64,000 bases of DNA from Bacteroidia bacterium (lineage in GTDB: Bacteria > Bacteroidota > Bacteroidia > Palsa-965): assembly GCA_038237845.1 (NCBI GenBank), contig JBBRYH010000010.1:25692-89691 (forward strand). The letters are read 5' to 3'. The stretch's first letter is position 1. Every line of letters starts with the position of its first letter. The notes below the pieces were generated by a model. The model had not been told where the DNA came from. It worked only from the letters and a program-made list of their open reading frames with translations, and searched no databases. Positions 1,082 to 54,032 of this stretch are shown here, in pieces. The translations under genes and the position numbers were made by a program.

Positions 1082-4000
1082 TTAAAATTTGGCAGCCAGC
1101 ACACATGAACGTTTATAACTCTTCACTTTCCCATCGGCAGAAAAAACTTCAAAGTAAATAATGTAAGCACCGACTCTTGCTTTTGTGCGATCGTCCATGG
1201 TGCCATCCCAAGAGAGGGTTCCTTTTTCTGTACCGAGTAGTTCACTATGAACTATTGTTCTTACTAAGCGACCACGTGAATCATAAATCGTTACGCTAGC
1301 AACATAACCAGGAGAAGAAAAATTGTAATCAATATTTACCACATCATTAAATCCATCGCCATCCGGAGAAAAAATTGGTTCAGTAACAGTCACTTCTCCA
1401 TCGTCTGTGCCGCCTGGATTAAATTCTGAATTCTGTTGTGTCGGTGTTGCAAATCCTGCATTTTCAGCAGCAGAATGCCAGTTAGTTGCATCCTGTGTTG
1501 TACGATCAAAATCAATTCGCTCTAAAGAAACGCCCTTTGTGTTTTGTAACAATGGGAAATGCCAAGAACTTAAATAAATTAATTGATCAATGATATGAAA
1601 TCCAGTATCTGCTAACACTACAATATCTCCATCCACATTCATAGAAGGAATATTTGCCATATCTAAACATTTGTCGATGTCTGTAGTATTCGGATATTGC
1701 ATTTGAACAGTTGCTCCACTCTCACTTAAGACAAGATATTGTCCCGGAAAAAGTAAATATCCTTCAGGTGCAATTAGATTAAAATCATTTAAAGTATTAG
1801 TTAGCGTATCAAGTGTACACAAAACAAGATTTTTCAAATCAAGAACTTTTGTCGAACGATTATAAACTTCTACAAAATCAATACCGCCATTATTCGGATC
1901 AAACAAAACTTCATTGATAATAACATCATTGGGAAGAATTGCAGATGGCAAAGCAAATAGTGCTGTTCCAGGAGCAGCTAATTGATTCCCGACACAATCG
2001 GTCAATTGAAAATTAACAGTAATGGTGTAAATAATTCCGGTTGAAATGGCCGATGAAAGTTTCAAATCGCATTTTGAAAAGTCACTTCCAATTGGACGAA
2101 TGCTAATTGGATTGCCAATGCTATTGTCGATGGTATAAGAACTTAAACTTACCATCGTCAGACTGTCAAGTGATTCTGAAAACCACAAACGAATACTATC
2201 CGGAGCTAGAACAGAAACGCGAATAAAACGAGGTTTAATATTATCCGGATTCGATGCTGCAACACTGTTTCTATAACCCGGTGTTCCACCCGTTGTAGAA
2301 TTAGACGCAATCCAGTTTGAAGCGCCAGAGCAAGGGTTCAATGGATCAATCTGTTCAAGTGACCAGCCTCCGTTTTTTTTGGTTGTGTTTTGATACCACG
2401 TGTCGGAATAGGTTATGGAATGAATTACAATTCCGGTCGGCTCTCGCAGTGTAATCGTTCCTCCCGTATTGGTCAAAGTAGGAATGCTTGTAACCCCTAC
2501 AATATTGATTCCTGGATAAAGAGCAGCTGCGGTTGTCGATGTGAGCACAAGAAAACTATCAGCAGGAATTACTGCAGTTGGTATTACGCGCGTAGTAGTT
2601 CCAACACCAATCGTCCATCCTGTAACACTGATGGAATAGGACGTAGTATTATGCAATTCAAAATATTCTTCGTCCGGCAATTGAACAACTGGATTCGGAT
2701 CAGGCATGATTTCATTGATAACAATATCAAATTCCTGTAATTGATGATAAGAGAAATTTCCTGAGTTTGGACTCGTTGCGTTGCCTGCGCAATCAGTAAG
2801 TGCTGCAAAATTGATGGTATAGGAAGTGTTGTTGGCAAGTGAAGTTCCCAGTGTCAACGTTGCGCATTGAAGTGTGGCAGTATCGTAAGACATTGAAACA
2901 GGAATTCCAATAAGTGGTGAAATAGAATAATTCGAAAGGTTAGTTAAAGTGGAGGGATCGATTCCTTCATTAAAACAAATTTGTAAATGCAAACTATCTA
3001 TTGCAATGGCAGATAAAAGAATTGGCCCGGTAACATCAGGCGAATTATTAAAAACGGAATTTTGTGTTCCAGGAGTTCCTCCAGTTGGATTTATAGAAGC
3101 AATCCAATTTCCTGCTGGGGCACATCCAACATTTGTATTCGGATTAATTAATTCTAATGTCCAGCCTCCATTTTGTTTTGTAAGATCACGAAACCAGGTT
3201 AAATTATAATTGGCAGAATCAATTGGATTACTTCCCGCATCAAAAATTTTCAAATTGTCTCCAGCATTGTTTAGTGAGGGCCAAGATGAAAGTCCGATAG
3301 TCGGACCAAATGGAGAATACAAAGCTGTATCTGCGTTGGCGCAAAGAATAAGATAAGTACCAGCAGGAAGAACCTGTGCTCCAAAATTTCCTGTAGAAGT
3401 TCCGTCGGTAAATGACCAACCGCTCAAGTCAAAATTTGAGGTGCTGCGATTGAAAATTTCAACAAATTCAGAAGCGGGCAATCCTATAACAGGAGAAGGA
3501 TCTGCAAAAACTTCATTGATAATTACATCATGAAAAACAGCATTTGATATGGGAAGGTAAAGGAAGTTTGCAGTGGTAGAAGTAATTGCATTTGTATTTA
3601 AATCCTGAACATTTATTACGGTAAGAATGTAATTTGTTGCACTGATAAAATTCGAAGCAAAGGTAAGGTGAACGAGAGAGTGATTTGTTGCGTCACGTAC
3701 CGCTGAAGTCGGAATGCCGATGCTGTTATTGACGGAGTAGTTAGCAGCAACCTGTGAAGTAGTCAGATCAACATTTTCATCAAATGTTACATCGAGTTGT
3801 GTTGCTGAAATAGGAGTAGCAGATAAAATAGATGGAGCGGTTACGTCGACAATAATTGGCCCGACATAAAAATCGTCGTAATAAAATTTGGTGATATTGG
3901 ATACTGTGTATTTGCTGAAGATGCCGAAAAAATTACTCGTGGTATGTGTGTTATCAAATGTGGTCCCTTCGATTTGATAATTATAACCACCGAGTGTATC

Positions 4001-4525
4001 AGAATACATTGTGAAATTCCCCGTTGCATCTCTGATAACTTTTATTCTTAAAACATTATTGGTTGCAGCACAATGTGAATTTACACCATCTATGATTTTT
4101 GTTTGTGTGGCTCCGCTCTGTTCCCACAAATCAACACTGTCAAAAGAACCGTTTTCACCTAGACGAACATAATACCCATTAACTGCGCCAGTCAGCGTAG
4201 CAATGTCTGCAATGAGATAAACACGAACGTTATTATTATCTGAAGGAGCAAAATTTTCTCTAACCCAAAAATCCCATTCGGTATTTGCAACTGCTGTGCT
4301 TGGAGTAGAGAGATAGGCCGTATCCGAAACCGTTCCGTTCGATTGTAATTGAAAACCTGCATTCACAATATAATTTACTGCATCGCCTGTCCAAACTGTT
4401 CCGGTGGTGAAATTTCCATCGGAGAAATTATCGGTGAGTTGGGCATTGCTGTTTAATGAAAAACAAAACACTGAAACGAGAAAAAGTAGTATACGAGTTG
4501 ACAATTGTCCTTGATTTTTGGTCAC
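1082..4525 (-). CDS. Large secreted surface protein (1147 aa) with three lamin-tail-domain (LTD) repeats and a T9SS type-B (gliding-motility-associated, CHU_C-like) C-terminal domain.
   Basis: Signal peptide. Repeated LTD signature blocks VIINEVFADPSP, IVINEIMPDPNP, VIINEVLFDPNNGG. C-terminus FSPDGDGFNDVVNIDYNF...VTIYDSRGRLV matches the type-B CTD motif (F/SPNGDGxND ... YNRWG). Confidence 0.8.
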   Translation of the reverse strand: MTKNQGQLSTRILLFLVSVFCFSLNSNAQLTDNFSDGNFTTGTVWTGDAVNYIVNAGFQLQSNGTVSDTAYLSTPSTAVANTEWDFWVRENFAPSDNNNVRVYLIADIATLTGAVNGYYVRLGENGSFDSVDLWEQSGATQTKIIDGVNSHCAATNNVLRIKVIRDATGNFTMYSDTLGGYNYQIEGTTFDNTHTTSNFFGIFSKYTVSNITKFYYDDFYVGPIIVDVTAPSILSATPISATQLDVTFDENVDLTTSQVAANYSVNNSIGIPTSAVRDATNHSLVHLTFASNFISATNYILTVINVQDLNTNAITSTTANFLYLPISNAVFHDVIINEVFADPSPVIGLPASEFVEIFNRSTSNFDLSGWSFTDGTSTGNFGAQVLPAGTYLILCANADTALYSPFGPTIGLSSWPSLNNAGDNLKIFDAGSNPIDSANYNLTWFRDLTKQNGGWTLELINPNTNVGCAPAGNWIASINPTGGTPGTQNSVFNNSPDVTGPILLSAIAIDSLHLQICFNEGIDPSTLTNLSNYSISPLIGIPVSMSYDTATLQCATLTLGTSLANNTSYTINFAALTDCAGNATSPNSGNFSYHQLQEFDIVINEIMPDPNPVVQLPDEEYFELHNTTSYSISVTGWTIGVGTTTRVIPTAVIPADSFLVLTSTTAAALYPGINIVGVTSIPTLTNTGGTITLREPTGIVIHSITYSDTWYQNTTKKNGGWSLEQIDPLNPCSGASNWIASNSTTGGTPGYRNSVAASNPDNIKPRFIRVSVLAPDSIRLWFSESLDSLTMVSLSSYTIDNSIGNPISIRPIGSDFSKCDLKLSSAISTGIIYTITVNFQLTDCVGNQLAAPGTALFALPSAILPNDVIINEVLFDPNNGGIDFVEVYNRSTKVLDLKNLVLCTLDTLTNTLNDFNLIAPEGYLLFPGQYLVLSESGATVQMQYPNTTDIDKCLDMANIPSMNVDGDIVVLADTGFHIIDQLIYLSSWHFPLLQNTKGVSLERIDFDRTTQDATNWHSAAENAGFATPTQQNSEFNPGGTDDGEVTVTEPIFSPDGDGFNDVVNIDYNFSSPGYVASVTIYDSRGRLVRTIVHSELLGTEKGTLSWDGTMDDRTKARVGAYIIYFEVFSADGKVKSYKRSCVLAAKF

Positions 4526-4718
4526 CTGTAAAGATAAGTTATTCAGCTGTTCGAATTGTCAATTTCATGTGAACAAAGTTTCAATATTTGTATGGTCAGA
4601 AAGCGGAAAAGTAGCATCTTTGCATCCATGATAAACAAATGCATAAAACGTAAGTATAAGAAACCTACTCGATAGGGAAGGACTACTTGTGTATTATGTA
4701 AATAATCAAAAGCAGCGG

Positions 4719-4744
4719 CCTTTCCCAAATGGAAAGGTTTTTTT
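4719..4744 (+). terminator. Hairpin CCTTTCC-caaat-GGAAAGG followed by a T7 run, 25 nt upstream of the asd start. Plus-strand intrinsic-terminator-like element.
   Basis: Perfect 7-bp inverted repeat plus T-run, read directly. The orientation matches a plus-strand transcript even though the upstream gene is on the minus strand. Confidence 0.45.
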
Positions 4745-4768
4745 ATTAATTCAAATTAATTCACTTTT

Positions 4769-5761
4769 ATGAAAATTGCAGTTGTCGGTGCCACAGGTTT
4801 AGTGGGAACTAAAATGTTACAGATTCTGGAAGAGCGAAATTTTCCTGTCACAGAATTAATTCTTGTTGCCTCTGAAAAATCAGCAGGGAAAGAAATCACA
4901 TTTAAGGGCAAGAAGTATAAAGTGGTAACTGCACAAACGGCAATTGAGATGAAACCACAGATTGCATTATTTTCTGCTGGAGGAGGTACTTCATTGGAAT
5001 GGGCGCCAAAATTTGCTGCTGCAGGAATTACAGTTATTGATAATTCTTCTGCTTGGAGAATGGATCCGACAAAAAAATTAATTGTTCCAGAAATCAACGC
5101 AGATGCATTGACTAAGGAAGATAAAATTATTGCAAATCCCAATTGCTCCACGATTCAAATGGTTGTTGCATTAAATCCCTTGCACAAAAAATACAAAATA
5201 AAACGAATTGTAGTAAGCACGTATCAATCGGTAACAGGAACAGGTAAAAAAGCAGTTGATCAATTGATGAATGAACGCGCTGGAACAAAAGGTGAAATGG
5301 CTTATGCGTATCAAATTGACATGAATGCTATTCCGCATATTGATGTGTTTTTGGAAAATGGATACACAAAAGAAGAGATGAAGATGGTGAATGAAACGAA
5401 AAAAATTATGCGCGATGATTCAATTCGTTTGACAGCCACAACAGTTCGTATTCCTGTGATGGGTGGACATTCCGAAGCGGTGAATGTGGAATTTGAAAAT
5501 GAATTCGAATTATCGGATGTTCGGAAAATTCTTGAAGAGGCTGATGGTGTAATCGTTTTGGATGATGTGAAAAACCTACAATATCCAATGCCGCTTATTC
5601 ATGCTCATGATAAAGACGATGTATTTGTTGGGAGATTGCGTCGAGATGAAACACAAGCGAAAACATTAAATATGTGGGTGGTTTCTGATAATCTCAGAAA
5701 AGGTGCAGCTACTAATGCAATTCAGATTGCTGAATATTTATTAAAGGCTGGATTAGTTTAA
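4769..5761 (+). CDS. asd: Aspartate-semialdehyde dehydrogenase
   Basis: N-terminal MKIAVVGATGLVGTKMLQILEER NAD-binding Rossmann motif, active-site region NPNCSTIQMVVAL, 330 aa. Confidence 0.93.
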   Translation: MKIAVVGATGLVGTKMLQILEERNFPVTELILVASEKSAGKEITFKGKKYKVVTAQTAIEMKPQIALFSAGGGTSLEWAPKFAAAGITVIDNSSAWRMDPTKKLIVPEINADALTKEDKIIANPNCSTIQMVVALNPLHKKYKIKRIVVSTYQSVTGTGKKAVDQLMNERAGTKGEMAYAYQIDMNAIPHIDVFLENGYTKEEMKMVNETKKIMRDDSIRLTATTVRIPVMGGHSEAVNVEFENEFELSDVRKILEEADGVIVLDDVKNLQYPMPLIHAHDKDDVFVGRLRRDETQAKTLNMWVVSDNLRKGAATNAIQIAEYLLKAGLV

Positions 5762-6867: not shown

Positions 6868-7569
6868 TTATCGATTTTGACCCAATTTGGCGTCAATACT
6901 AAGTGTTGCATGCGGAACACTACGTAAACGTTCTTTTGGAATTAGTTTTCCAGTAACGCGACAGATTCCGTAAGTTTTATTTGCGATTCGCATCAATGCA
7001 TTCTTGAGATTCTGAATGTATTTTTCTTGACGAGCAGCCAAGTGAGCGGTTTCTTCTTTGGAAAGAACATCAGATCCATCTTCGAGCAATTTGAAAGTGG
7101 GAGAAGTATCATCTGTTCCATGATCATCCTTATGAGAAAGTGTATTTTTGAGAAGTTCGTAATCACGACTCGCCTCATCCAATTTCTTTACGATAAGAAT
7201 TTTGAATTCTTTCAATTCTACCTCTGAATAACGTGTACGGTTATCAACAGGACCCGGTTTTGCTTTATGAGCAACTGGATTTGGTTTGGTGAAAGCAAAA
7301 GGTTTTGAAATCTCGACTTTCACAGGTGTAGTAGCTACAGGCTTCTTTACCGGAGCTTTAGCGACAACAACTTTTTTAGCGACTACTTTTTTAGCCACTG
7401 CTTTTTTGGCAACAACTTTTTTAGCAACAACTTTCTTTGCTACCACTTTTTTAGCTGCTGGTTTTTTAGCAACAACTTTTTTTGCTTTGGGTGCAGCTTT
7501 TTTAGCAGCTCCAGATTTTTTTGCTGGAGCTGCTTTTTTAGCTGACTTTGCTTTTACTTTCTTAGCCAT
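6868..7569 (-). CDS. Fusion protein: N-terminal histone-H1-like Lys/Ala-rich repeat region (about 100 aa of AKKVV repeats) plus a C-terminal DksA/TraR-family domain.
   Basis: Repeats AKKVVAKKVVAKKVV. C-terminal region YSEVELKEFKILIVKKLDEA...DDTSPTFKLLEDGS...LAARQEKYIQNLKNALMRIANKTYGICRVTGKLIPKERLRSVPHATLSIDAK matches Bacteroidota TraR/DksA proteins, which are typically encoded between ileS and lspA. Confidence 0.75.
   Translation of the reverse strand: MAKKVKAKSAKKAAPAKKSGAAKKAAPKAKKVVAKKPAAKKVVAKKVVAKKVVAKKAVAKKVVAKKVVVAKAPVKKPVATTPVKVEISKPFAFTKPNPVAHKAKPGPVDNRTRYSEVELKEFKILIVKKLDEASRDYELLKNTLSHKDDHGTDDTSPTFKLLEDGSDVLSKEETAHLAARQEKYIQNLKNALMRIANKTYGICRVTGKLIPKERLRSVPHATLSIDAKLGQNR
7290..7560. 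repeat. Imperfect ~15-nt tandem DNA repeats (gcaacaacttttttagc-like) encoding the KKVVA repeats.
   Basis: Read directly at 7360-7470. Slippage-prone. Confidence 0.6.
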
Positions 7570-7586
7570 TGTAGTTTTGGAATCAA

Positions 7587-8108
7587 TTAAAAATGATCGA
7601 ATGCGCCACGTGTGTCATTATCACTTGTGTGGTCGTTATCATCACTTATTTCTGGAGCATCTTCAGTAATTTCCATTGCCGGTTCGTCATCGGTCATGAT
7701 TTCTTCAAAAGCAGGAGGCGGAGGTGTGTGTACTACTTCAGGTTTTGGAGCAATCACGCTCGGAGCTGGTTTAGGCGCAACAACTTTTGGTGTCACCACT
7801 TTAGGCGCAACAACTTTAGGCATCACGACTTTAGGCGCTACTACTTTTTTTGCAGGAGCAACTTTTTTCGCGACAACTTTTTTAGGTGCTGCTTTTTTTA
7901 CTGTTTTTTTCTTTGCAACTTTTTTCACTGCTTTTTTCTTAGCAGGCTTTGCTTTCTTAGCTGCAACTTTTTTCTTAGGAGCCGGTTTTTTCTTAGCAAC
8001 TTTTTTAGCCGATTTTTTCACCGACTTCTTAGCTGCTTTTTTGGCGCCTTTTTTCTTTGCAGGTTTTGCTTTCTTAGAAGCTCCACCTTTTTTCGCCTTT
8101 TTAGCCAT
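7587..8108 (-). CDS. Histone H1-like basic protein (173 aa). The N-terminal Lys/Ala/Pro-rich region gives way to an acidic C-terminal tail.
   Basis: MAKKAKKGGASKKAKPAKKKGAKKAAKK...PKVVAPKVV then EEIMTDDEPAMEITEDAPEISDDNDHTSDND. The antisense poly-F ORFs on the plus strand are artefacts. Confidence 0.7.
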   Translation of the reverse strand: MAKKAKKGGASKKAKPAKKKGAKKAAKKSVKKSAKKVAKKKPAPKKKVAAKKAKPAKKKAVKKVAKKKTVKKAAPKKVVAKKVAPAKKVVAPKVVMPKVVAPKVVTPKVVAPKPAPSVIAPKPEVVHTPPPPAFEEIMTDDEPAMEITEDAPEISDDNDHTSDNDTRGAFDHF

Positions 8109-24615: not shown

Positions 24616-26064
24616 TTATTTCGGGCAATCATCCACATTGCCGTTTTTTGTTTTTGACTTTTTCTTTTTCCCACTTCCTCCAGTAGGAAACAAGGGAACT
24701 TTTATTGCAAAATAAACATCTGCTGTATAGTTTACTTTTTTAGGAAGTAATATCCCTAACATATTCGTAGTACCAACAATAAATGGTCCCAAACGAAAAC
24801 CAGTTCCAACACAAAGATTTCCAAATCGTGAAAATGAAATTGGCGCCCAGATTCCGTACCATCTTTTTTCCCAACGTGGGGTTACAGAAATTCGGGTAAG
24901 TTCATGCACTTTTCGTCCGTCGTTATTTCTTAAGTACACACCTGAAATAACTGTAGCATTTACAAAAAAAGATTTTCCTACGAAATAATCATACTGTACA
25001 TTTAAGGCAAGCGGTAAGCGCATCCACATTCCATTTCCTTCTTTACTTCCTCCCGAACGAGAATTAAAAAGAGAGCTAAGCGGGCTAGGAGATGTTGAAT
25101 TCCAAACATTGTTATTATAATCCCAAAGATTGGATTGTAAAGAATAATGATCTGAAAATTCTCCATAATGAAAATGAACGAAACCTAAATCTGTGATTGA
25201 AACACCAATACGATATTTATAAACGGGGCGATCACGAAAACCGGGCCACTCTTTTTCTTTTTTCTTTTCTTTCTCATTCTTCTGCATCACGTCAGGACGA
25301 AACTCATAAATAATTCCTGCATCAACACCTAGCCCAGGGTTAAAACCAACTTTATAACTGGGTTGCATGGAAGAATTAAAACTGAAATTATCAGAAATGC
25401 CAAAATCTGCATCTGCACGAACTATAGATAAAACAGAATCATTTCTGAAGTTGTATCCCACATCATTAACAAAAGCATATCCTCCTGCAAGACCTAATAA
25501 AAATTTCGGACGAACACCAAAACTTACAAAATGTTCAGCGCCTGTCCAGATGGTTTTTGCATAGGTTCCACCCAATTCAAACCAGCTTAATGCTGTTACA
25601 CCAATGTGTCTATTATATAATGTTTGTTCGTAATGCGACGGATCAGCTAATTCATTTACAAAAATATGAGCGAGATCTCTTGAAATTCCTTCCACATTCC
25701 CATACGTGCGCACTTTCATATCCACACCCCAACCCACTTTCCCATTAGAAAACATAATGCTCGGAAGAAGAATTTCATTTCTTACGAAGGCTGCTTTTTT
25801 GGTATTCCTTTCACGCAAGATATATTTTTGTGGACCGAAAGTTCCATTCAAATCAGCTCTACGTACACCTGCATAATTATTTCCCACCTCAAGTCCAGCA
25901 CCACAAACGAGTATGTCCATGCTGCAAACATTATCTGCAAGAGACGCAGGATTATAGGAAGCGCCGACAATTCCGGAATAATTACTATGGGCGTAGCCAA
26001 GATAATCTTGCGCGTAAAAGTGGATGGATAATAGGGAAAGAATAGGGAGTAAAAGTCGCTTCAT
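24616..26064 (-). CDS. Putative outer-membrane beta-barrel protein (482 aa) with a Lys-rich C-terminal tail
   Basis: Signal peptide MKRLLLPILSLLSIHFYAQ, Gly/aromatic-rich alternating pattern, C-terminal GGSGKKKKSKTKNG. Confidence 0.5.
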   Translation of the reverse strand: MKRLLLPILSLLSIHFYAQDYLGYAHSNYSGIVGASYNPASLADNVCSMDILVCGAGLEVGNNYAGVRRADLNGTFGPQKYILRERNTKKAAFVRNEILLPSIMFSNGKVGWGVDMKVRTYGNVEGISRDLAHIFVNELADPSHYEQTLYNRHIGVTALSWFELGGTYAKTIWTGAEHFVSFGVRPKFLLGLAGGYAFVNDVGYNFRNDSVLSIVRADADFGISDNFSFNSSMQPSYKVGFNPGLGVDAGIIYEFRPDVMQKNEKEKKKEKEWPGFRDRPVYKYRIGVSITDLGFVHFHYGEFSDHYSLQSNLWDYNNNVWNSTSPSPLSSLFNSRSGGSKEGNGMWMRLPLALNVQYDYFVGKSFFVNATVISGVYLRNNDGRKVHELTRISVTPRWEKRWYGIWAPISFSRFGNLCVGTGFRLGPFIVGTTNMLGILLPKKVNYTADVYFAIKVPLFPTGGSGKKKKSKTKNGNVDDCPK

Positions 26065-38859: not shown

Positions 38860-39576
38860 TTATTCAATTCGTTGCTTGTTGTGAAAGACAATTTTAGTAA
38901 CGGGATGAATTTCCCAAGCGCTGAATACTTTATAACTATCGACTTTAGAATGGGCTCCATAATGATGATTGTCAAAAAACAGCGATCCTGAGATATAATC
39001 GAGATGAATTGGAGGATTTTTTTTGGAAGCGACAAAGACTAATTCTTTTGATATGTCTGTTCCAATCCAATTTTTAAAATGATGTCGGACTGCAGCTAAA
39101 ATTGCAAAGAAAGGGCTTGTTGAATCGGGAAGACCTGAAATTTCTGCAGTAAGAAAAGGTTGACTTTTTTCCAATGATTTTGATGAACCAAGAATAACAT
39201 GAAAGTCATTATCATCTTCTCTTTTTATTCCAAAAATATAAACGTCGGCCAAACAAATAGAATGATTTTCCTCTTTTGTTCTCGGCGCCGTATTTGTTTT
39301 TGCTTCTGTTGATTTGTGCATGTATTCATCATCCGGCAACCAATTTCTTAATTCTTTTATGCTTTGAAAAGTGTCGGTAGGAAGATTTACAAATGATGTT
39401 TTTACACTGGCACGAATACTTCCACGAAAAACATCCTGCAAACCCGGATCGTGTTTTAGGGTAGTATCTATTTCACTTTCAATGGATGGATTTTCCGTTC
39501 CAATTACCGTCTTCTGCGGAGTCGAACCACAAGAGAAAACCAGAAAAGAGAATAATGCGAAGGATAAAAATTTCAA
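38860..39576 (-). CDS. Hypothetical lipoprotein (238 aa)
   Basis: Signal peptide plus lipobox LVFSCGS. Confidence 0.5.
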   Translation of the reverse strand: MKFLSFALFSFLVFSCGSTPQKTVIGTENPSIESEIDTTLKHDPGLQDVFRGSIRASVKTSFVNLPTDTFQSIKELRNWLPDDEYMHKSTEAKTNTAPRTKEENHSICLADVYIFGIKREDDNDFHVILGSSKSLEKSQPFLTAEISGLPDSTSPFFAILAAVRHHFKNWIGTDISKELVFVASKKNPPIHLDYISGSLFFDNHHYGAHSKVDSYKVFSAWEIHPVTKIVFHNKQRIE

Positions 39577-40439: not shown

Positions 40440-40538
40440 GTTGAAAACTTTTTTATATTTGTATAATGCAAAGATAGGCAAACATCTACTTTGCGGCAAG
40501 AAATGGGTCTTTCCCATTTAGGCAACCTCGGCAACAAA

Positions 40539-40886
40539 ATGAACAAAGTGATAAATCGTTTCTCAATCAGTGGAATCCTTATTATGGTTCTGTTTACTGT
40601 CGTCCTCAATTCTGGATGTGCAAAGGACAAGCCGTGTAAAGCAATTATTACTGTACTTGATGCAAGCAACAATCCCGTAAGTGGTGCTCAGGTTCATTTA
40701 ATTGCACCTGCCCCTTCTACAGTAGATATTGTCGTTTCAACCGATGCTTCTGGAAAAGCTAGTTTTGAAGTAAATCTTCCTCAGATTCTTGATATTTCAG
40801 TTGTAATCGGAACAACAACTTATCCTACAGGAAAAGTTGTTCGATTCGAACAAGGAAAAACTGACGAGGTAACTGTAAATATTTAA
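40539..40886 (+). CDS. Small lipoprotein with a carboxypeptidase-regulatory-like (Ig-like) beta-sandwich
   Basis: Lipobox VLNSGC. VSGAQVHLIA...TDASGKASFEV. Confidence 0.45.
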   Translation: MNKVINRFSISGILIMVLFTVVLNSGCAKDKPCKAIITVLDASNNPVSGAQVHLIAPAPSTVDIVVSTDASGKASFEVNLPQILDISVVIGTTTYPTGKVVRFEQGKTDEVTVNI

Positions 40887-40907
40887 AAGAACTTTCTCTG
40901 AAATAAT

Positions 40908-40942
40908 AAAGCCCTCACTTAACAGTGGGGGCTTTTCTTTTA
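40908..40942. terminator. Bidirectional terminator GCCCTCAC...GTGGGGGC plus T-run between convergent genes
   Basis: 8-bp stem with one mismatch. ttttctttt follows. Confidence 0.5.
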
Positions 40943-40962
40943 ATATATATATGCTTAGAAAA

Positions 40963-41307
40963 TCAAATCACTTCACCTTTTTCAAAATATTCAATAATCG
41001 TTTCCTGCATAAAACGCTGCTGTTGCCCCGGTTTTAAATTAGGAAGTTTTGAAGTTGGTTTCCAATGCGGCCATTTATCGGCGTCCAATCCTTCATATTC
41101 ATAAAAACCATAAGGTTCAAGCAAAGAACAAATAGCAACATGCATAATGTCCATTTTCTCATCCTTCTTATATTCTTTATATCCATGACCCAATTCCTGA
41201 AGTCCTATAATAAAAAGAATTGCTTGCACATCCAGATCTCCACCGAAGCGAGGTTCAAGTGCCACTAAAAGGGTTTCCCACTGTTTTTTGAAATGTTCGT
41301 CTTGCAC
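40963..41307 (-). CDS. Hypothetical protein (114 aa, GTG start). Preceded by a copy of the GC-rich upstream element.
   Basis: ORF. Element copy at 41331-41344, 24 nt upstream of the start. Confidence 0.45.
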   Translation of the reverse strand: MQDEHFKKQWETLLVALEPRFGGDLDVQAILFIIGLQELGHGYKEYKKDEKMDIMHVAICSLLEPYGFYEYEGLDADKWPHWKPTSKLPNLKPGQQQRFMQETIIEYFEKGEVI

Positions 41308-41330
41308 AGTATAAAGGTAGTGATTGGTAT

Positions 41331-41364
41331 CCGCTTAGGCGGAGTTGATTAGAGATTAGTGATT
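41331..41364 (-). repeat. Copy A of the GC-rich element (read on the minus strand as AATCACTAATCTCTAATCAACTCCGCCTAAGCGG), facing gene 40963-41307
   Basis: 21/25 identity to copy B over AATCAMCTCCGCCTARGCRGAYACC. Confidence 0.6.
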
Positions 41365-41730
41365 TGTTTGTTTTTTTAAATAGTTGATATAACCGTTTAA
41401 TAGCCGAATGCAATTTCCATATTTCATTTTTTGTTTCTGAAATTCCTCCTCTACAATGTAACCTTCATCAAGTGCAACAATCAAATGCTCAAGCGTTTCT
41501 TTTAATGACCCTGCTGACATACGAAGGAATCGGGTATTGTCCTTGAATCCGTATCTGCCATGACCTTCCGCAATGTTTGCAGTGACCGATCGTGAAGATC
41601 GCTTAATCTGTCGAATCAGCTCAAACTTTTCATGTGCAGGAAATTTTTGTGTTAAGATTGAAATCTGTATCCTGAATTCTCTACACAACTTCCAAACCTC
41701 TAATTCTTCAAAGCTATTATATTCTTTCAT
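41356..41730 (-). CDS. Four-helix-bundle protein (23S rRNA intervening-sequence protein / Avd-like family)
   Basis: FPAHEKFELIRQIKRSSRSVTANIAEGHGRY and ...TLEHLIVALDEGYI are diagnostic of TIGR02436-type 4HB proteins. Confidence 0.8.
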   Translation of the reverse strand: MKEYNSFEELEVWKLCREFRIQISILTQKFPAHEKFELIRQIKRSSRSVTANIAEGHGRYGFKDNTRFLRMSAGSLKETLEHLIVALDEGYIVEEEFQKQKMKYGNCIRLLNGYINYLKKQTNH

Positions 41731-41806
41731 ATTTATTATTTTAAAAAGGGCGGCAAAGATGTAGGAAATAATTAATTTTCCAAATTATCCCCAAAAAATT
41801 ATTTTT

Positions 41807-41841
41807 TCACTAATCACCTCCGCCTAGGCAGACACCAATCA
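41807..41841 (+). repeat. Copy B of the GC-rich element (TCACTAATCACCTCCGCCTAGGCAGACACCAATCACC), 20 nt upstream of the cvpA ATG. Forms an inverted pair with copy A around the 4HB gene.
   Basis: Reverse complement is 19/22 identical to copy A. Core contains the palindrome GCCTAGGC. Confidence 0.6.
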
Positions 41842-41851
41842 CCAATCACCA

Positions 41852-42382
41852 ATGAACGCAATCGACATCGTTATTCTAATTCCTGTCCTTTGGGGATTCT
41901 GGCGCGGATTTATGAAAGGCGCTATTATGGAGGCAGCTACACTCATCGCTTTTTTTCTTGGCGTTTGGGGTGGAATGCATTTGTCGCATGGCATGGCCGA
42001 TCTTATTCATAAATGGACCGATTCTACTTCACCCTATATACCCTTGATTTCTTTTGCGCTAGTTTTTGTTGGAATTCTTGCGGCGGTTTTTGGAGTTGCA
42101 AAACTGGTAGAGAAAATGATAGAGAAAATGGCGCTTTCTTTTATCAATAAACTTTTAGGCGGTTGTATTGGAACCATCAAATTTTTAATGATCCTGAGCG
42201 TATTGTTTTTTGTTACCGATCGATTGGAAAAAAATATTGAGATTATTCCGGTGAAGATGAAAGACAATTCATTGCTTTATCGACCTGTTGCAAAAGTAGC
42301 GCCGATGATTATTCCAGGATTAGCCTCAAGTAATTTTGGAAAGGATACTTTGAAAGTTCCACAACTCCCAATAGAAAAGTAA
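41852..42382 (+). CDS. cvpA: CvpA-family membrane protein (colicin V production protein homolog)
   Basis: MNAIDIVILIPVLWGFWRGFMKG... four TM helices, 176 aa. Confidence 0.75.
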   Translation: MNAIDIVILIPVLWGFWRGFMKGAIMEAATLIAFFLGVWGGMHLSHGMADLIHKWTDSTSPYIPLISFALVFVGILAAVFGVAKLVEKMIEKMALSFINKLLGGCIGTIKFLMILSVLFFVTDRLEKNIEIIPVKMKDNSLLYRPVAKVAPMIIPGLASSNFGKDTLKVPQLPIEK

Positions 42383-42387
42383 AAAAC

Positions 42388-42927
42388 TTATTTCCCCTTT
42401 TTCAATTTGAACGATTCCATGAATTGTCGAATTTCATGATTTTCCAATTTCATGTTTTCTGTCACCACAAGTAGCGTGTAAAGATGTTTTCCAATTGCGA
42501 ATTTTCGAATGGTAGAAATGCCACGGTTTCCTGCAATAATCACTTTGTATTCTCTTCCTACTATCTCACCACTTTTTACAACTCTTCCCGTATCTGTCAA
42601 TGTTCCGCCAATCGACCATGCATAAACTTGCACATCGGTTTCAAAAAGATCTTTCATGTTTTCTTTTACTAAGGAAATCGTATCAGGCAAAGAATACATG
42701 GAAACGGCATAATACATATTGGAGTCAAGCGAACCTGGAACAGGTTCATAAAAACTTCTTGAACCTGCATATTCTCCTTCCATTGAAACAGTATCGCGTG
42801 CTATTCCCGGAAACTGTACTGAGAATTCTGAAGTCTCATACACTTTCCAATCTCCCGCACCACAAGAAGTTAATAGCGGGATGAAAAACAGAAGAAGACC
42901 AAGTGTTTTGTAAAAAATTATTTTCAT
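42388..42927 (-). CDS. Hypothetical lipoprotein (179 aa)
   Basis: Lipobox LLTSCGA. Confidence 0.5.
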   Translation of the reverse strand: MKIIFYKTLGLLLFFIPLLTSCGAGDWKVYETSEFSVQFPGIARDTVSMEGEYAGSRSFYEPVPGSLDSNMYYAVSMYSLPDTISLVKENMKDLFETDVQVYAWSIGGTLTDTGRVVKSGEIVGREYKVIIAGNRGISTIRKFAIGKHLYTLLVVTENMKLENHEIRQFMESFKLKKGK

Positions 42928-44338: not shown

Positions 44339-44623
44339 ATGAACGCATTATTTAAAGCTTTAGACGATCCGACGAGACGCCAGATTCTGGAACTGCTCAG
44401 AGAAAAAGATAGGACTGCAGGGGATATTGCAGATGCTTTCACAATTAGCAAACCAAGCATCTCACACCATCTCGATTTATTACGTCAAGCGAATCTTGTG
44501 ATTTCGATTAAGGAAGGCCAATTCGTCCGCTATTCTTTAAATACAACCGTTTTTGATGAACTGATCGGATGGGTTATGAATTTATCAGATAAGAAAAACA
44601 CAAAACGAAAAAATAAAAAGTAA
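44339..44623 (+). CDS. sdpR: ArsR/SmtB-family winged-helix autorepressor, SdpR-like
   Basis: LDDPTRRQILELL...AGDIADAFTISKPSISHHLDLLRQANLV. 1-nt overlap (TAATG) with the downstream SdpI-like gene. Confidence 0.8.
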   Translation: MNALFKALDDPTRRQILELLREKDRTAGDIADAFTISKPSISHHLDLLRQANLVISIKEGQFVRYSLNTTVFDELIGWVMNLSDKKNTKRKNKK

Positions 44624-45291
44624 TGAAAACAAAAGACTTTATTAAACGAGAATGGTCGATGTGGTTGTTGATTTTAATTCCAACCGTTTTTGCAATAATC
44701 AACTGGAATAATTTTCCTGATAAAATTCCTACCCATTGGGATATTAATGGAGACGTAAATGATTACGGTGGAAAATGGGCGGTCTTCCTTGGACCAATGA
44801 TCGGAACGGCAATGTATTTTCTGATGATCGTTCTGCCGAAAATAGATCCGCGCAAAAAAAATTATGATTTGTTTAGCGGCGCATATTGGATGATCAGAAT
44901 TGGAATAATTCTTTTAATGTCCATTATCGGAATTGTAACTGAACTGGTTTCGCTGGGCTATAAATTGGATGTGGGCATGATCGTTCAATTGGCGGTACTT
45001 GGCCTTTTCCTTTTAATCGGAAATCAAATGGGAAGAATCCGTCCGAATTATTTTGTTGGAATCAGAACTCCTTGGACCATTGACAATGAAGAAGTGTGGA
45101 CCAAAACACATCGTTTGGCGGGAAGAATTTGGGTCGGAACATGTTTGGTTTTAATGCTTGTTTTGTTTTTTATTCCGGTAAAAATATTTGCAATAATTTT
45201 CTTTGTTTCAATTATTACGATGTCTGTTATTCCGTTGGTCTATTCCTATTTGTTGTACAAAAAAATAAAAGCGCAACATACTTCAAATTAA
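44623..45291 (+). CDS. sdpI: SdpI/YhfL-family membrane immunity protein (DUF1648 + SdpI domains)
   Basis: IRPNYFVGIRTPWTIDNEEVWTKTHRLAGRIWV is the SdpI signature. Six TM helices. Confidence 0.75.
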   Translation: MKTKDFIKREWSMWLLILIPTVFAIINWNNFPDKIPTHWDINGDVNDYGGKWAVFLGPMIGTAMYFLMIVLPKIDPRKKNYDLFSGAYWMIRIGIILLMSIIGIVTELVSLGYKLDVGMIVQLAVLGLFLLIGNQMGRIRPNYFVGIRTPWTIDNEEVWTKTHRLAGRIWVGTCLVLMLVLFFIPVKIFAIIFFVSIITMSVIPLVYSYLLYKKIKAQHTSN

Positions 45292-45323
45292 TAGTTCACT
45301 AGAGGGTTATTGCCACAAAGACA

Positions 45324-45339
45324 CTCCGCCGCGGCGGAG
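45324..45339. repeat. Perfect 16-bp GC palindrome CTCCGCCGCGGCGGAG, flanked by direct CACAAAG repeats. Shares the TCCGCC core with the GC-rich element.
   Basis: Read directly. Unusual in an AT-rich intergenic region. Confidence 0.6.
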
Positions 45340-45442
45340 GCACAAAGAAAGGGAGACTCTTTAGAAAATACCATAGCCCAATAACATGAATCTAAGAGTT
45401 GACTAATCACCAAAACTAATCATCAATCACTATCTTTATAAT

Positions 45443-52215: not shown

Positions 52216-52914
52216 ATGAACAAAGTAGTTTCAAACGCCGAAGAAGCAATCAGCGATATAAAAGACGGAGCGACCATCATGCTCGGTGGTTTCGGATTGT
52301 GTGGCATTCCCGAAAATTCAATCGCAGCATTGGTAAAGAGTGGCGTAAGAAATCTCACCTGCATTTCTAATAATGCGGGAGTGGATGATTTTGGAATTGG
52401 CCTTCTCTTAAAAACGCGTCAGGTGAAAAAAATGATTTCATCTTATGTGGGTGAAAATGCAGAATTCGAAAGACAATTACTAAGCGGCGAATTGGAAGTT
52501 GATTTAATTCCGCAGGGAACACTTGCAACACGTTGTATGGCGGCAGCCTACGGAATGCCGGCTGTATTTGTACGTGCAGGAGTAGGGACAGAAGTTGCCA
52601 TTGGGAAAGAAACAAGGAATTTCAACGGAATAGAATACTTAATGGAATATGCATTTGATGCAGAATTCTCCATTGTAAAAGCATGGAAAGCTGATACGCA
52701 CGGAAATTTAATGTTCCGGAAAACAACGAGAAACTTTAACGTGCCAATGGCAATGGGTGGAAAAATTACGATTGCCGAAGTGGAAGAAATTGTTCCGGCA
52801 GGTGAACTTGATCCCGATTGTATTCACGTTCCCGGGATTTATGTGCATCGCGTGTTCAAAGGAGAGAAATTTGAAAAGCGAATTGAGCAAAGAACAGTAA
52901 GGAAGAAGTCATAA
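52216..52914 (+). CDS. scoA: 3-oxoacid CoA-transferase subunit A
   Basis: IMLGGFGLCGIPE, 232 aa. Confidence 0.9.
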   Translation: MNKVVSNAEEAISDIKDGATIMLGGFGLCGIPENSIAALVKSGVRNLTCISNNAGVDDFGIGLLLKTRQVKKMISSYVGENAEFERQLLSGELEVDLIPQGTLATRCMAAAYGMPAVFVRAGVGTEVAIGKETRNFNGIEYLMEYAFDAEFSIVKAWKADTHGNLMFRKTTRNFNVPMAMGGKITIAEVEEIVPAGELDPDCIHVPGIYVHRVFKGEKFEKRIEQRTVRKKS

Positions 52915-52936
52915 TTTATAATTGAATTTTTTTACA

Positions 52937-52968
52937 AATCACTTCCGCCCAGGCGCACACTAATTATT
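52937..52968 (+). repeat. Copy D of the GC-rich element (AATCACTTCCGCCCAGGCGCACACTAATTATT), 13 nt upstream of ORF 52969
   Basis: About 26/33 identity to copy B. Confidence 0.6.
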
Positions 52969-53265
52969 ATGAAACCATACATCGACTTAGAAGGAAAAAA
53001 AATCTACCTACCACAATCTGTAGATGCACACAATTTTGAAATTTGTGTAATGGGAGATTTTTTCCTGTTGTGTAAAAAAGTAACTCAACGTTATTCACAG
53101 GCAACAGGTGTTTTGATGGAACGATCAGGAAAAGAATTAATTTTCCATAAATCAGTAAGCTCTTATTTTCTTAGAACGTTCCCGCTAAACAAAAGTGAAT
53201 TTTATAAAATCAATATCGACTATCAAGCCAACAATGGTCCAATTTCAATTGTTCACGAGGAATAA
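52969..53265 (+). CDS. Hypothetical 98-aa protein inserted between scoA and scoB
   Basis: ORF only. No recognised motif. Confidence 0.4.
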   Translation: MKPYIDLEGKKIYLPQSVDAHNFEICVMGDFFLLCKKVTQRYSQATGVLMERSGKELIFHKSVSSYFLRTFPLNKSEFYKINIDYQANNGPISIVHEE

Positions 53266-53372
53266 GTTATTAGTTATTTGCGAGTAGTTATTAGAAAATA
53301 GTTTAGAAGACTCATTTTAATTAATAATCAATTGCTGATAACCAATCGCTAATCACTAATAACTCAACAACC

Positions 53373-54032
53373 ATGCTAGACAAAAACGGAATTGCAAAAC
53401 GGATTGCCAAAGAAGTAAAAGACGGGAATTACGTAAATCTCGGAATCGGAATCCCAACTTTGGTTGCAAATTATATTCCCAAAGGAATTGAAGTAACCTT
53501 GCAATCTGAAAATGGAATGTTAGGCATGGGACCTTTTCCTTTTGAAGGTGATGAAGATCCTGATTTGATAAATGCTGGAAAACAAACCATCACTGAAGTT
53601 CCTGGCACATCGTATTTTGATTCTGCATTAAGCTTTGGAATGATACGTGCAGGAAAAGTTGATCTTACTATTCTTGGTGCAATGGAAGTAAGCGAAGAAG
53701 GCGATATTGCTAATTGGAAAATTCCGGGTAAAATGGTGAAGGGAATGGGCGGTGCGATGGATCTTGTTGCTGCAGCGAAAAATATTATTGTAGCCATGCA
53801 GCATGTGAACAAAGCCGGAGAATCCAAATTACTTCCGAAATGTTCGCTCCCATTGACAGGAGTAAAATGCGTTCGTAAAATTGTAACAGAGTTAGCGGTA
53901 GTAGAAGTAATTCCAGGAAAGGGATTTAAACTACTTGAGCGCGCACCAGGAGTGAGTGTAGAAGAAATCATTAAAGCCACAGCAGGAAAACTAATTGTTG
54001 AGGGAGAAATTCCTGAAATGAATCTGGATTAA
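53373..54032 (+). CDS. scoB: 3-oxoacid CoA-transferase subunit B
   Basis: Conserved GxGGAMDL region (MVKGMGGAMDLVAAAK), 219 aa. Confidence 0.9.
   Translation: MLDKNGIAKRIAKEVKDGNYVNLGIGIPTLVANYIPKGIEVTLQSENGMLGMGPFPFEGDEDPDLINAGKQTITEVPGTSYFDSALSFGMIRAGKVDLTILGAMEVSEEGDIANWKIPGKMVKGMGGAMDLVAAAKNIIVAMQHVNKAGESKLLPKCSLPLTGVKCVRKIVTELAVVEVIPGKGFKLLERAPGVSVEEIIKATAGKLIVEGEIPEMNLD

Follow-up and report, generated by a model that had tools for sequence, protein, structure and literature searches.

Inverted short-tandem arrays define an old four-helix-bundle gene cassette between protein-coding genes of a Bacteroidia bacterium

We analysed a 64,000-nt stretch of the genome of a Bacteroidia bacterium (GenBank assembly GCA_038237845.1, contig JBBRYH010000010.1, forward-strand positions 25,692 to 89,691), hereafter called the window, and found that its only gene for a four-helix-bundle (4HB) protein is enclosed by inverted arrays of short tandem repeats. 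To our knowledge, this protein family is known only as cargo of rRNA intervening sequences (IVSs) and as Avd, the cofactor of diversity-generating retroelements (DGRs). The gene and its arrays make up a unit of about 535 bp (41320-41853), and most homologous 4HB genes of Bacteroidota and of cyanobacterial plasmids lie within the same architecture, usually between two co-directional genes. The window copy is an old, fixed member of this widespread class of IVS-like 4HB cassettes outside rRNA with tandem-repeat arms, of which we found no description in the literature searched. We read the element as a resident copy of an IVS-type 4HB cassette whose arms pair. Taken as a whole, this reading stands at about even chances, which is a compromise between its two parts: the architecture and history of the cassette are very probably as described below, and a function of the arms as an RNA stem, proposed by analogy with rRNA IVSs, is tentative and somewhat doubtful.

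The 4HB gene (41356-41730, minus strand) encodes a protein of 124 amino acids (aa) with a pI of 9.25. Profile hidden Markov models (HMMs) matched it over positions 1-106 of 106 for PF05635 (E = 2e-31; score 108.8 bits, cutoff 33.8) and also for TIGR02436 (E = 9.5e-30, 103 bits against a cutoff of 24), so that the open reading frame (ORF) is a full-length member of PF05635/TIGR02436 with both scores above the curated cutoffs. The closest solved structure is 2GSC_A (XCC0516 of Xanthomonas; E = 9.4e-12, residues 7-119), and 2GSC has been described as a toroidal homopentamer (PMC4990558). Comparison of the window gene with its orthologues gave pN values of 0.12-0.19 and pS values of 0.82-0.85 at constant protein length, a pattern that points to purifying selection on the protein. 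PADLOC gave no defence-system match for this protein, for the 114-aa product of the adjacent gene or for the 98-aa product of an ORF described below.

The inverted arms that bracket the gene, the single such pair around a 4HB gene in the window, lie at 41320-41352 and 41810-41842. They are 33 nt long and complementary at 29 of 33 positions, with four mismatches, and the inverted repeat can be extended to 51 nt at 76% complementarity. Their local-alignment score was 23.5, compared with a mean of 8.9 and a maximum of 11.5 for shuffled sequences, and a 27-nt arm pattern with up to three mismatches found no match in 100 shuffles. When the minus-strand RNA of 41300-41860 was folded, the arms paired around the ORF (-138 kcal/mol, z = -2.87), and none of 100 shuffles was as stable. 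Terminal complementary sequences able to form an ORF-enclosing stem are thus present at this locus, as judged from both the 29/33 match and the minimum free energy fold. The observation of the initial annotation, which had placed a TIGR02436-type 4HB gene between inverted copies of a GC-rich element, was confirmed by the arms and by the HMM scores, and its description of a discrete cassette bounded by inverted repeats was likewise borne out.

Read along the 4HB-sense strand, the cassette consists of a G/T-rich GGTGATT array, its own promoter, the 4HB gene and a C/A-rich AATCACC array. The arm upstream of the gene (41792-41853) comprises in this direction (GGTGATT)3, a GC palindrome and GGTGATTAGTGA; on the plus strand it reads CTAATCAC, the palindrome and three tandem CACCAAT heptamers (41833-41853), which run into the ATG of the divergent cvpA gene at 41852, the last triplet of the array. 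The arm downstream of the gene (41320-41370) comprises, in 4HB sense, AATCACTAATCTCTAATCAAC, a GC palindrome and ACCAATCAC. It overlaps the 4HB stop codon, as do the GATTAG-type units at 41345-41366, and its end lies 13 nt ahead of the GTG start of the gene for the 114-aa hypothetical protein (hyp114). The GC palindromes of both arms are nested in tandem heptamers, which the initial annotation had missed, and because the palindrome itself is nearly self-complementary, the inverted orientation of the two copies is due to the heptamers. As had been proposed, the copies face outward, in that the C/A-rich reading and the palindrome of each arm run into the starts of cvpA and hyp114. Rfam had no family matching the arms or the palindromes, and no target-site duplication was visible at the junctions of the window cassette.

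The nearest 4HB proteins are encoded, as in the window, between cvpA and hyp114. They are 82% (locus L087), 79% (L101) and 73% identical (L088 and L089, one identical protein from two samples), and all of these orthologues have GGTGATT arrays upstream and AATCACC-type arrays downstream of the gene (AATTACC and GATTACC in L088). An identical arrangement in relatives, in a non-mobile context, was what the initial annotation had named as speaking against a mobile cassette, and the same arrangement at the same locus is what these relatives show, at saturated synonymous sites. A metagenome scan with CvpA recovered five further syntenic, more distant loci (L082-L086; PheS 76-78% and Pgk 82-86% identical) with the gene order pheS, peptidyl-prolyl isomerase (PPIase) gene, Ig-like gene, hyp114, cvpA, hyp179 and pgk. 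At each of these five loci, hyp114 is the divergent neighbour of cvpA across a spacer of 90-257 nt, with no 4HB gene and no window-type arrays at either gene; these are empty sites of the kind that the initial annotation had suggested looking for. From this comparison, the cassette interrupts an ancestral divergent pair of hyp114 and cvpA; it was either gained once or lost in the other branch, and it has been inherited vertically as a functional gene since then. We regard the window copy as old and vertically inherited because it occupies the same site in the closest relatives, synonymous sites are saturated and the protein is conserved.

The spacer between hyp114 and cvpA in the relatives without a 4HB gene has features of its own: L086 has an inverted GTGCTGAT pair without an ORF (3560-3728), L082 a long GC-rich hairpin (3744-4000) and L083 a 14-nt tandem repeat (3359-3448). 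This spacer seems to be a hot spot or to retain remnants. Elsewhere in the same gene cluster, pheS and the PPIase gene enclose a gene for a 238-aa hypothetical protein (38860-39576 in the window), which L087 and L088 share and which the five distant syntenic loci lack.

The GGTGATT array is shared by seven loci (L087, L088, L089, L090, L101, L102 and L103), and three of them lie at other sites in other bacteria: L090 is located beside a SpoIIE/tetratricopeptide repeat (TPR) gene, L102 before pth, and L103 before a PP-binding/AMP-binding gene pair. The 4HB proteins of these three are 72-74% identical to that of the window and thus as close to it as the L088 orthologue. All three show the order of GGTGATT array, GGTGAAAA junction, promoter block, ORF and CCAATCAC array, and their inner junctions and promoter blocks are invariant. 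Given this shared anatomy at other loci, we conclude that the unit has moved between loci in the course of evolution as a whole, together with its arrays and promoter. Other 4HB copies with like flanks therefore exist, and the earlier suggestion of a mobile cassette held in part: these copies and the cyanobacterial presence/absence pairs described below speak for it, and the age and vertical inheritance of the window copy speak against it.

The GC palindrome, of the form CTCCGCC-NN-GGCGGAG, occurs four times in the window, where 0.33 copies were expected and 200 shuffles gave at most two. The copy in the upstream arm (41818-41833, CTCCGCC-TA-GGCAGAC) is homologous to GTCCGCCGCGGCGGAG, which has the same heptamer position in L088 and L089, and the copy in the downstream arm (41329-41344, ATCCGC-TTAG-GCGGAG) was found in the window only. 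The downstream arms of L087, L088, L089 and L101 lack it, so the GC-rich element does not serve as the terminal repeat of the cassette, as the initial annotation had assumed. The upstream-arm palindrome is present in two copies in L088 and in one copy in L089; the upstream arrays of these two loci (3830-3925 and 2455-2500, respectively), which encode the same 4HB protein, differ by one 46-nt block of a palindrome and four heptamers, indicating that arrays change at the strain level. Because the palindrome is variable among orthologues and occupies both arms only in the window, it is a dispersed element of 14-16 nt that was inserted secondarily into the arrays, with presence in both arms limited to the window lineage, and the conserved cassette ends are the heptamer arrays, not the GC palindromes. 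In the sister cassette L102, a different GC palindrome (TCCCGATAGCTATCGGGA) is found at the outer edge of the GGTGATT array (around 380-400), and insertion of small GC palindromes into GGTGATT arrays seems to be recurrent.

A scan of one genome per species yielded 80 homologue loci with 49-64% identity, nearly all from Bacteroidota, of which 75 were scored for arms; a flank score of at least 15 was taken as arm-bearing, and 84 similar-sized ORFs in the same loci served as controls. This score was reached at 54 of the 75 homologue loci (72%) and by 2 of the 84 controls (2.4%), with medians of 20 and 9, respectively (Mann-Whitney p = 7e-24). The arms consist of tandem arrays with a degenerate unit of 7, 8 or 9 nt (GGTGATT, GTTAATTG or GTTGTAAAG, for example), and their sequence varies widely from cassette to cassette. 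Their polarity is regular: when the 54 loci and the window are taken together, the upstream sense strand is other than C/A-rich in 53 of 55 cassettes, with a G+T fraction above 0.6 in 43, and only two are reversed. The arms end close to the neighbouring genes (median gaps of about 8 nt from the stop codon and about 10 nt from the start codon), both neighbours are co-directional with the 4HB gene at 57 of 72 loci, and some loci have a G-then-C array pair on both sides of the gene. One Saprospiraceae locus, L047, contains two 4HB cassettes (2989-3384 and 4468-4857) 1 kb apart. Their proteins are 39% identical and their arm units unrelated, namely GGTGATT in one and a perfect 24-nt CCCGAAACCAAAAACCAAAAACCA with reversed polarity in the other.

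On the 4HB-sense strand, the junction between palindrome and heptamers (41812-41826 in the window, 3850-3865 in L088) reads GGAGGTGAT, a perfect Shine-Dalgarno sequence, and its complement ATCACCTCC equals the 3' tail of 16S rRNA. The match is probably coincidental, given that the units of other cassettes are unrelated. The GGTGAT-type units had prompted the idea that the arrays are Shine-Dalgarno or anti-Shine-Dalgarno mimics, which was dropped because most other cassettes have unrelated units (GTTAATTG, GTTGTAAAG and GTTTATAGA).

The inverted-array pattern was also found at six of seven plasmid loci. On cyanobacterial plasmids, whose 4HB homologues are 30-40% identical, the units are GGGAGTA versus TCCCTAC (Nostoc edaphicum), of AGTCAGG type (Aulosira and N. 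punctiforme) and GGAGATA versus TATCTCC (Picosynechococcus), and a Riemerella plasmid has a like pattern. These plasmid cassettes lie between cas10 and cmr3, cas6 and cas4, or nrdB and nrdA, with gaps of about 35 nt in several. Two pairs of related replicons differ by the presence of the cassette. In Picosynechococcus PCC 7003 (L094), a cassette of exactly 428 bp (35 + 357 + 36) separates cas10 from cmr3, whereas plasmid pAQ6 of PCC 7002 has a 12-nt spacer between flanks that are 93% identical; likewise, the 4HB gene between nrdB and nrdA of N. edaphicum corresponds to a 40-nt spacer in Calothrix NIES-4105, at 85% identity. In both pairs, the difference is bounded by the outer edges of the arrays, and no target-site duplication was visible at the junctions. 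The cassette-free PCC 7002 spacer TCGGTAATCATT (L099 646-657) is similar to the C/A-rich unit that comes last in the PCC 7003 cassette, TCTCCTAATCCT (L094 1546-1581), and could be the footprint of a loss or the seed of an array. Two of the plasmid cassettes are located within CRISPR-cas operons, one between cas6 and cas4 on a Pseudanabaena plasmid (L092) and the other the cas10/cmr3 cassette on the PCC 7003 plasmid. A '23S rRNA IVP' has been listed among CRISPR-linked proteins (PMC10910872), and cassettes with tandem-repeat arms in cas operons may explain its place in that list.

Transcription of the window cassette bears on what the arms could do. The neighbouring genes are hyp114 (40963-41307, minus strand), which starts 48 nt past the 4HB stop codon and has no Pfam match, and the divergent cvpA gene (Colicin_V family; 41852-42382, plus strand). 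A Bacteroidetes-type promoter motif, TTTG-N19-CATCTTTG, lies on the minus strand at 41754-41784; it falls within the inverted repeat, and its end is 23 nt from the 4HB ATG that follows. All seven clade copies have an unchanged CATCTTTGC block between upstream array and ATG despite saturated synonymous sites, and TTTG stands 19 nt ahead of this block in the window, L087 and L088, an arrangement that we take to be the -33/-7 promoter pattern of Bacteroidetes. Because the motif TTTG-N17-21-YANNTTTG is not enriched in the window (7 matches, 9 expected), it is conservation that carries the promoter call. A -7-like box within 90 nt of the start occurs in only 17 of 76 cassettes (the 75 homologue loci and the window), which suggests that the internal promoter is a feature of the window's clade, and the window arrangement of a divergent upstream neighbour with an internal promoter is a minority form among the cassettes. 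The only terminator-like hairpin of the region (40908-40935), called on the plus strand in the scan, is located where hyp114 and the 131-aa Ig-like gene converge, in the 76 nt that separate their 3' ends. From the A-run preceding its stem, we infer that it could serve the minus-strand 4HB unit, and the 4HB gene and hyp114 are probably co-transcribed from the internal promoter up to this hairpin.

The cassette shares its protein family and its ORF-enclosing terminal complementary sequences with the ORF-bearing 23S rRNA IVSs of Coxiella burnetii, Leptospira, Xanthomonas and Brucella ('S23p'). The Coxiella IVS, of 428 nt, has a 28-bp terminal inverted-repeat stem that is cut by RNase III, tandem GACAGAT heptamers of strain-variable copy number before the S23p ORF, and an ORF that is reported to be decaying (PMC4990558). 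The window cassette resembles it in the variable heptamers beside the ORF and in size (about 535 bp against 428 nt, a length that the PCC 7003 cassette matches exactly), but differs in its position between protein-coding genes, its own promoter, its arms of tandem units in place of a unique 28-bp stem, and a protein that is clearly under selection. A whole-window Rfam scan found one tRNA and no rRNA, and membership of the IVS class accordingly fails on the defining location, helix 25 or 45 of 23S rRNA.

Following the IVS precedent, the arms would be the counterpart of the RNase III-cleaved terminal complementary sequences. In RNA or single-stranded DNA spanning the cassette, the arrays would pair as a stem of at least 30 bp with the cargo looped out; the stem would allow the element to reside between two genes while their transcripts stay unfused, and the outward-reading, G-poor arrays would become the leaders of the flanking genes. 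Because most family members have no visible promoter of their own, read-through transcripts would contain both arms, and RNase III processing would, given the IVSs, be the most economical model.

Several observations weigh against such a stem as the whole explanation. As the window clade has its promoter inside the inverted repeat and a divergent upstream neighbour, the main 4HB transcript would have only the downstream arm, and it is doubtful that this transcript carries both arms, as excision by RNase III needs. Both arrays keep their unit across lineages with saturated synonymous sites even though the main transcript would lack one arm. Among the arm mismatches, 107 transitions were G·U-compatible in sense RNA and 114 in antisense RNA, with no excess, so that selection for pairing in the sense RNA specifically was unsupported. 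Arm similarity was only modestly higher within elements (median 23.5) than across related elements (18.9), a gap that is inflated by the selection of loci on the within-element score. It is the type and orientation of the unit that are conserved, rather than exact base pairing. The arms of L088 are unequal, about 100 nt upstream and about 40 nt downstream, and co-directionality of the neighbours is only mildly raised (79% against a background of 66%, p = 0.013); being slightly above background, it was also set aside as a sign of targeting.

That unit type and orientation are conserved agrees with a protein recognising the arrays, which in the simplest case would be the 4HB protein itself. The arrays might be binding sites, on RNA or single-stranded DNA with units of 7-9 nt, of the cassette's own basic, ring-shaped 4HB pentamer, which we consider unlikely but worth serious weight. 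Such binding, which would be comparable to TRAP wrapped around GAG repeats or to TnpA on the subterminal repeats at both ends of the En/Spm transposon, might control the cassette or keep its two ends joined so that it can be maintained or relocated, and this extension is put forward with the same reserve. The unit type is kept at four loci among clade-mates with saturated synonymous sites, the unit differs between 4HB clades (as in L047, where proteins 39% identical have unrelated units), unit type and orientation are better kept than exact arm complementarity, and the arrays persist where no transcript spans both arms. The protein is also basic (pI 9.25), and its solved relative 2GSC is described as a toroidal homopentamer (PMC4990558). 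Against this stands that unit and protein may covary through joint inheritance alone, and that arrays without a 4HB gene between them exist. Avd, the DGR relative, binds nucleic acids and a reverse transcriptase, and its binding is reported not to be sequence-specific, which also argues against array recognition.

A third explanation takes the inverted repeat as incidental: each of the divergent genes cvpA and hyp114 would have its own, independent leader module of C/A-rich heptamers and a GC hairpin just before its start codon, and the 4HB gene would merely lie between the two. Three of the four GC palindromes in the window do occur in C/A-rich context 10-25 nt before the starts of cvpA, hyp114 and the 98-aa ORF, holB too is preceded by a C/A-rich array, the median distance from the end of the C/A-rich array to the next start codon is about 10 nt across the family, and TAACTGA arrays upstream of start codons have been published (PMC4679880). 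We nevertheless consider this explanation improbable: the upstream neighbour is mostly co-directional, so that the G/T-rich arm after its stop codon leads nothing and is still present, the arrays move to new loci along with the 4HB gene, arrays of this kind are missing at cvpA and hyp114 in the five relatives that lack a 4HB gene, and the array of L088 is about 80 nt from the cvpA start codon. [quoted passage not shown] Of the initial annotation, the observation and the cassette reading thus stand, and the GC-element ends and the MITE reading do not.

The cassette was also compared with other known systems. Near the reverse transcriptases of DGRs, PF05635 is the family found most often (PMC10053308), and the DGR accessory protein Avd has a homologous four-helix-bundle fold. 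A DGR was rejected for the window cassette: no RVT family appeared in the Pfam assignments of called genes within 6 kb (L001 and L088), and no template/variable repeat pair and no direct repeat longer than 25 nt was found within 40500-42700. The initial annotation was hence right that a reverse transcriptase (in the 6 kb of called genes on either side), a template repeat (in 40500-42700) and rRNA (in the window) are absent.

Pairs of heptanucleotide or octanucleotide arrays have been described in Xanthomonas (GGGAATC) and as paired 'global regulator sites' in Geobacter metallireducens (PMC4692102, PMC2700814), and TAACTGA heptamer arrays have been found just before start codons in Beggiatoaceae, Cyanobacteria and five Bacteroidetes (PMC4679880). 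These published arrays are likewise intergenic tandem units of 7-9 nt, often in opposite-strand pairs and often beside start codons, and they sit between operon genes such as nifD and nifK or proB and proA (PMC4692102, PMC2700814, PMC4679880). The window arrays differ in flanking one cargo gene and moving with it, a link to 4HB genes that those papers do not make, and in the literature searched we found no paper tying PF05635/TIGR02436 genes to flanking inverted arrays outside rRNA. The GC palindrome (14-16 nt, four dispersed copies in 64 kb) resembles small elements of the repetitive extragenic palindromic (REP) type; it lies within heptamer arrays and is strain-variable, as in L088 and L089. 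Cyanobacterial 'small dispersed repeats' reportedly insert into heptamer arrays as well.

The window has its own equivalent of the published Xanthomonas, Geobacter and TAACTGA arrays, namely an inverted array pair without an ORF between its arms (53265-53297 and 53332-53364; 33-nt arms, 82% complementary, 34-nt loop). It occupies the spacer from the stop codon of the 98-aa ORF to the ATG of scoB, and its RNA fold has a z of -3.2. The 98-aa ORF (52969-53265), which has no Pfam, PADLOC or other match, splits scoA (52216-52914) from scoB (53373-54032), and it is preceded by a C/A-rich heptamer and GC palindrome (52935-52966) and followed by the ORF-less array pair, so that the scoA/scoB spacer (52915-53372) has the anatomy of the 4HB cassette with other cargo. 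The palindrome here (52943-52958, TTCCGCC-CA-GGCGCAC) is the fourth in the window; AATCAC and CACTAAT stand on its two sides, and 10 nt separate it from the ATG of the 98-aa ORF. The third (45324-45339, CTCCGCCGCGGCGGAG) lies in the spacer between the SdpI gene and holB (45292-45442) and is followed by a C/A-rich array (45402-45437) that ends 5 nt ahead of the holB ATG (45443); the adjacent helix-turn-helix (HTH)-SdpI gene pair (44339-45291) is absent from the distant loci L084 and L085 and present in L088. Another repetitive region, at 7365-8042, is a TRF block of 15-, 18- and 30-nt periodic repeats with CAACAACTTTTTTAG-like units.

Taken by itself, the window gives a modest result, a single copy that is old and fixed. 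A broader proposal is that 4HB genes with inverted arrays of 7-9 nt units are cross-phylum selfish 'intervening' cassettes that colonise spacers, including those of cas10/cmr3, cas6/cas4, nrdA/nrdB and scoA/scoB, that the pentamer specifically binds its own flanking repeats, and that ORF-less arrays, perhaps including the heptamers of Cyanobacteria, Xanthomonas, Geobacter and Bacteroidota, are non-autonomous derivatives. This proposal is speculative and rather unlikely in full; if it were true, it would give a function to the IVS/Avd-like family outside DGRs and to bacterial heptamer repeats. In Bacteroidota and Cyanobacteria, few small genes without an explanation are as common as those for 4HB proteins of this family. 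Outside rRNA, their genes come as a defined unit with inverted short-tandem arrays, located between genes and cleanly present or absent among related replicons, and this cassette links the origin of rRNA IVSs with the heptamer repeats that have remained unexplained from genome to genome and with the recurrence of '23S rRNA IVP' genes in CRISPR-cas operons.

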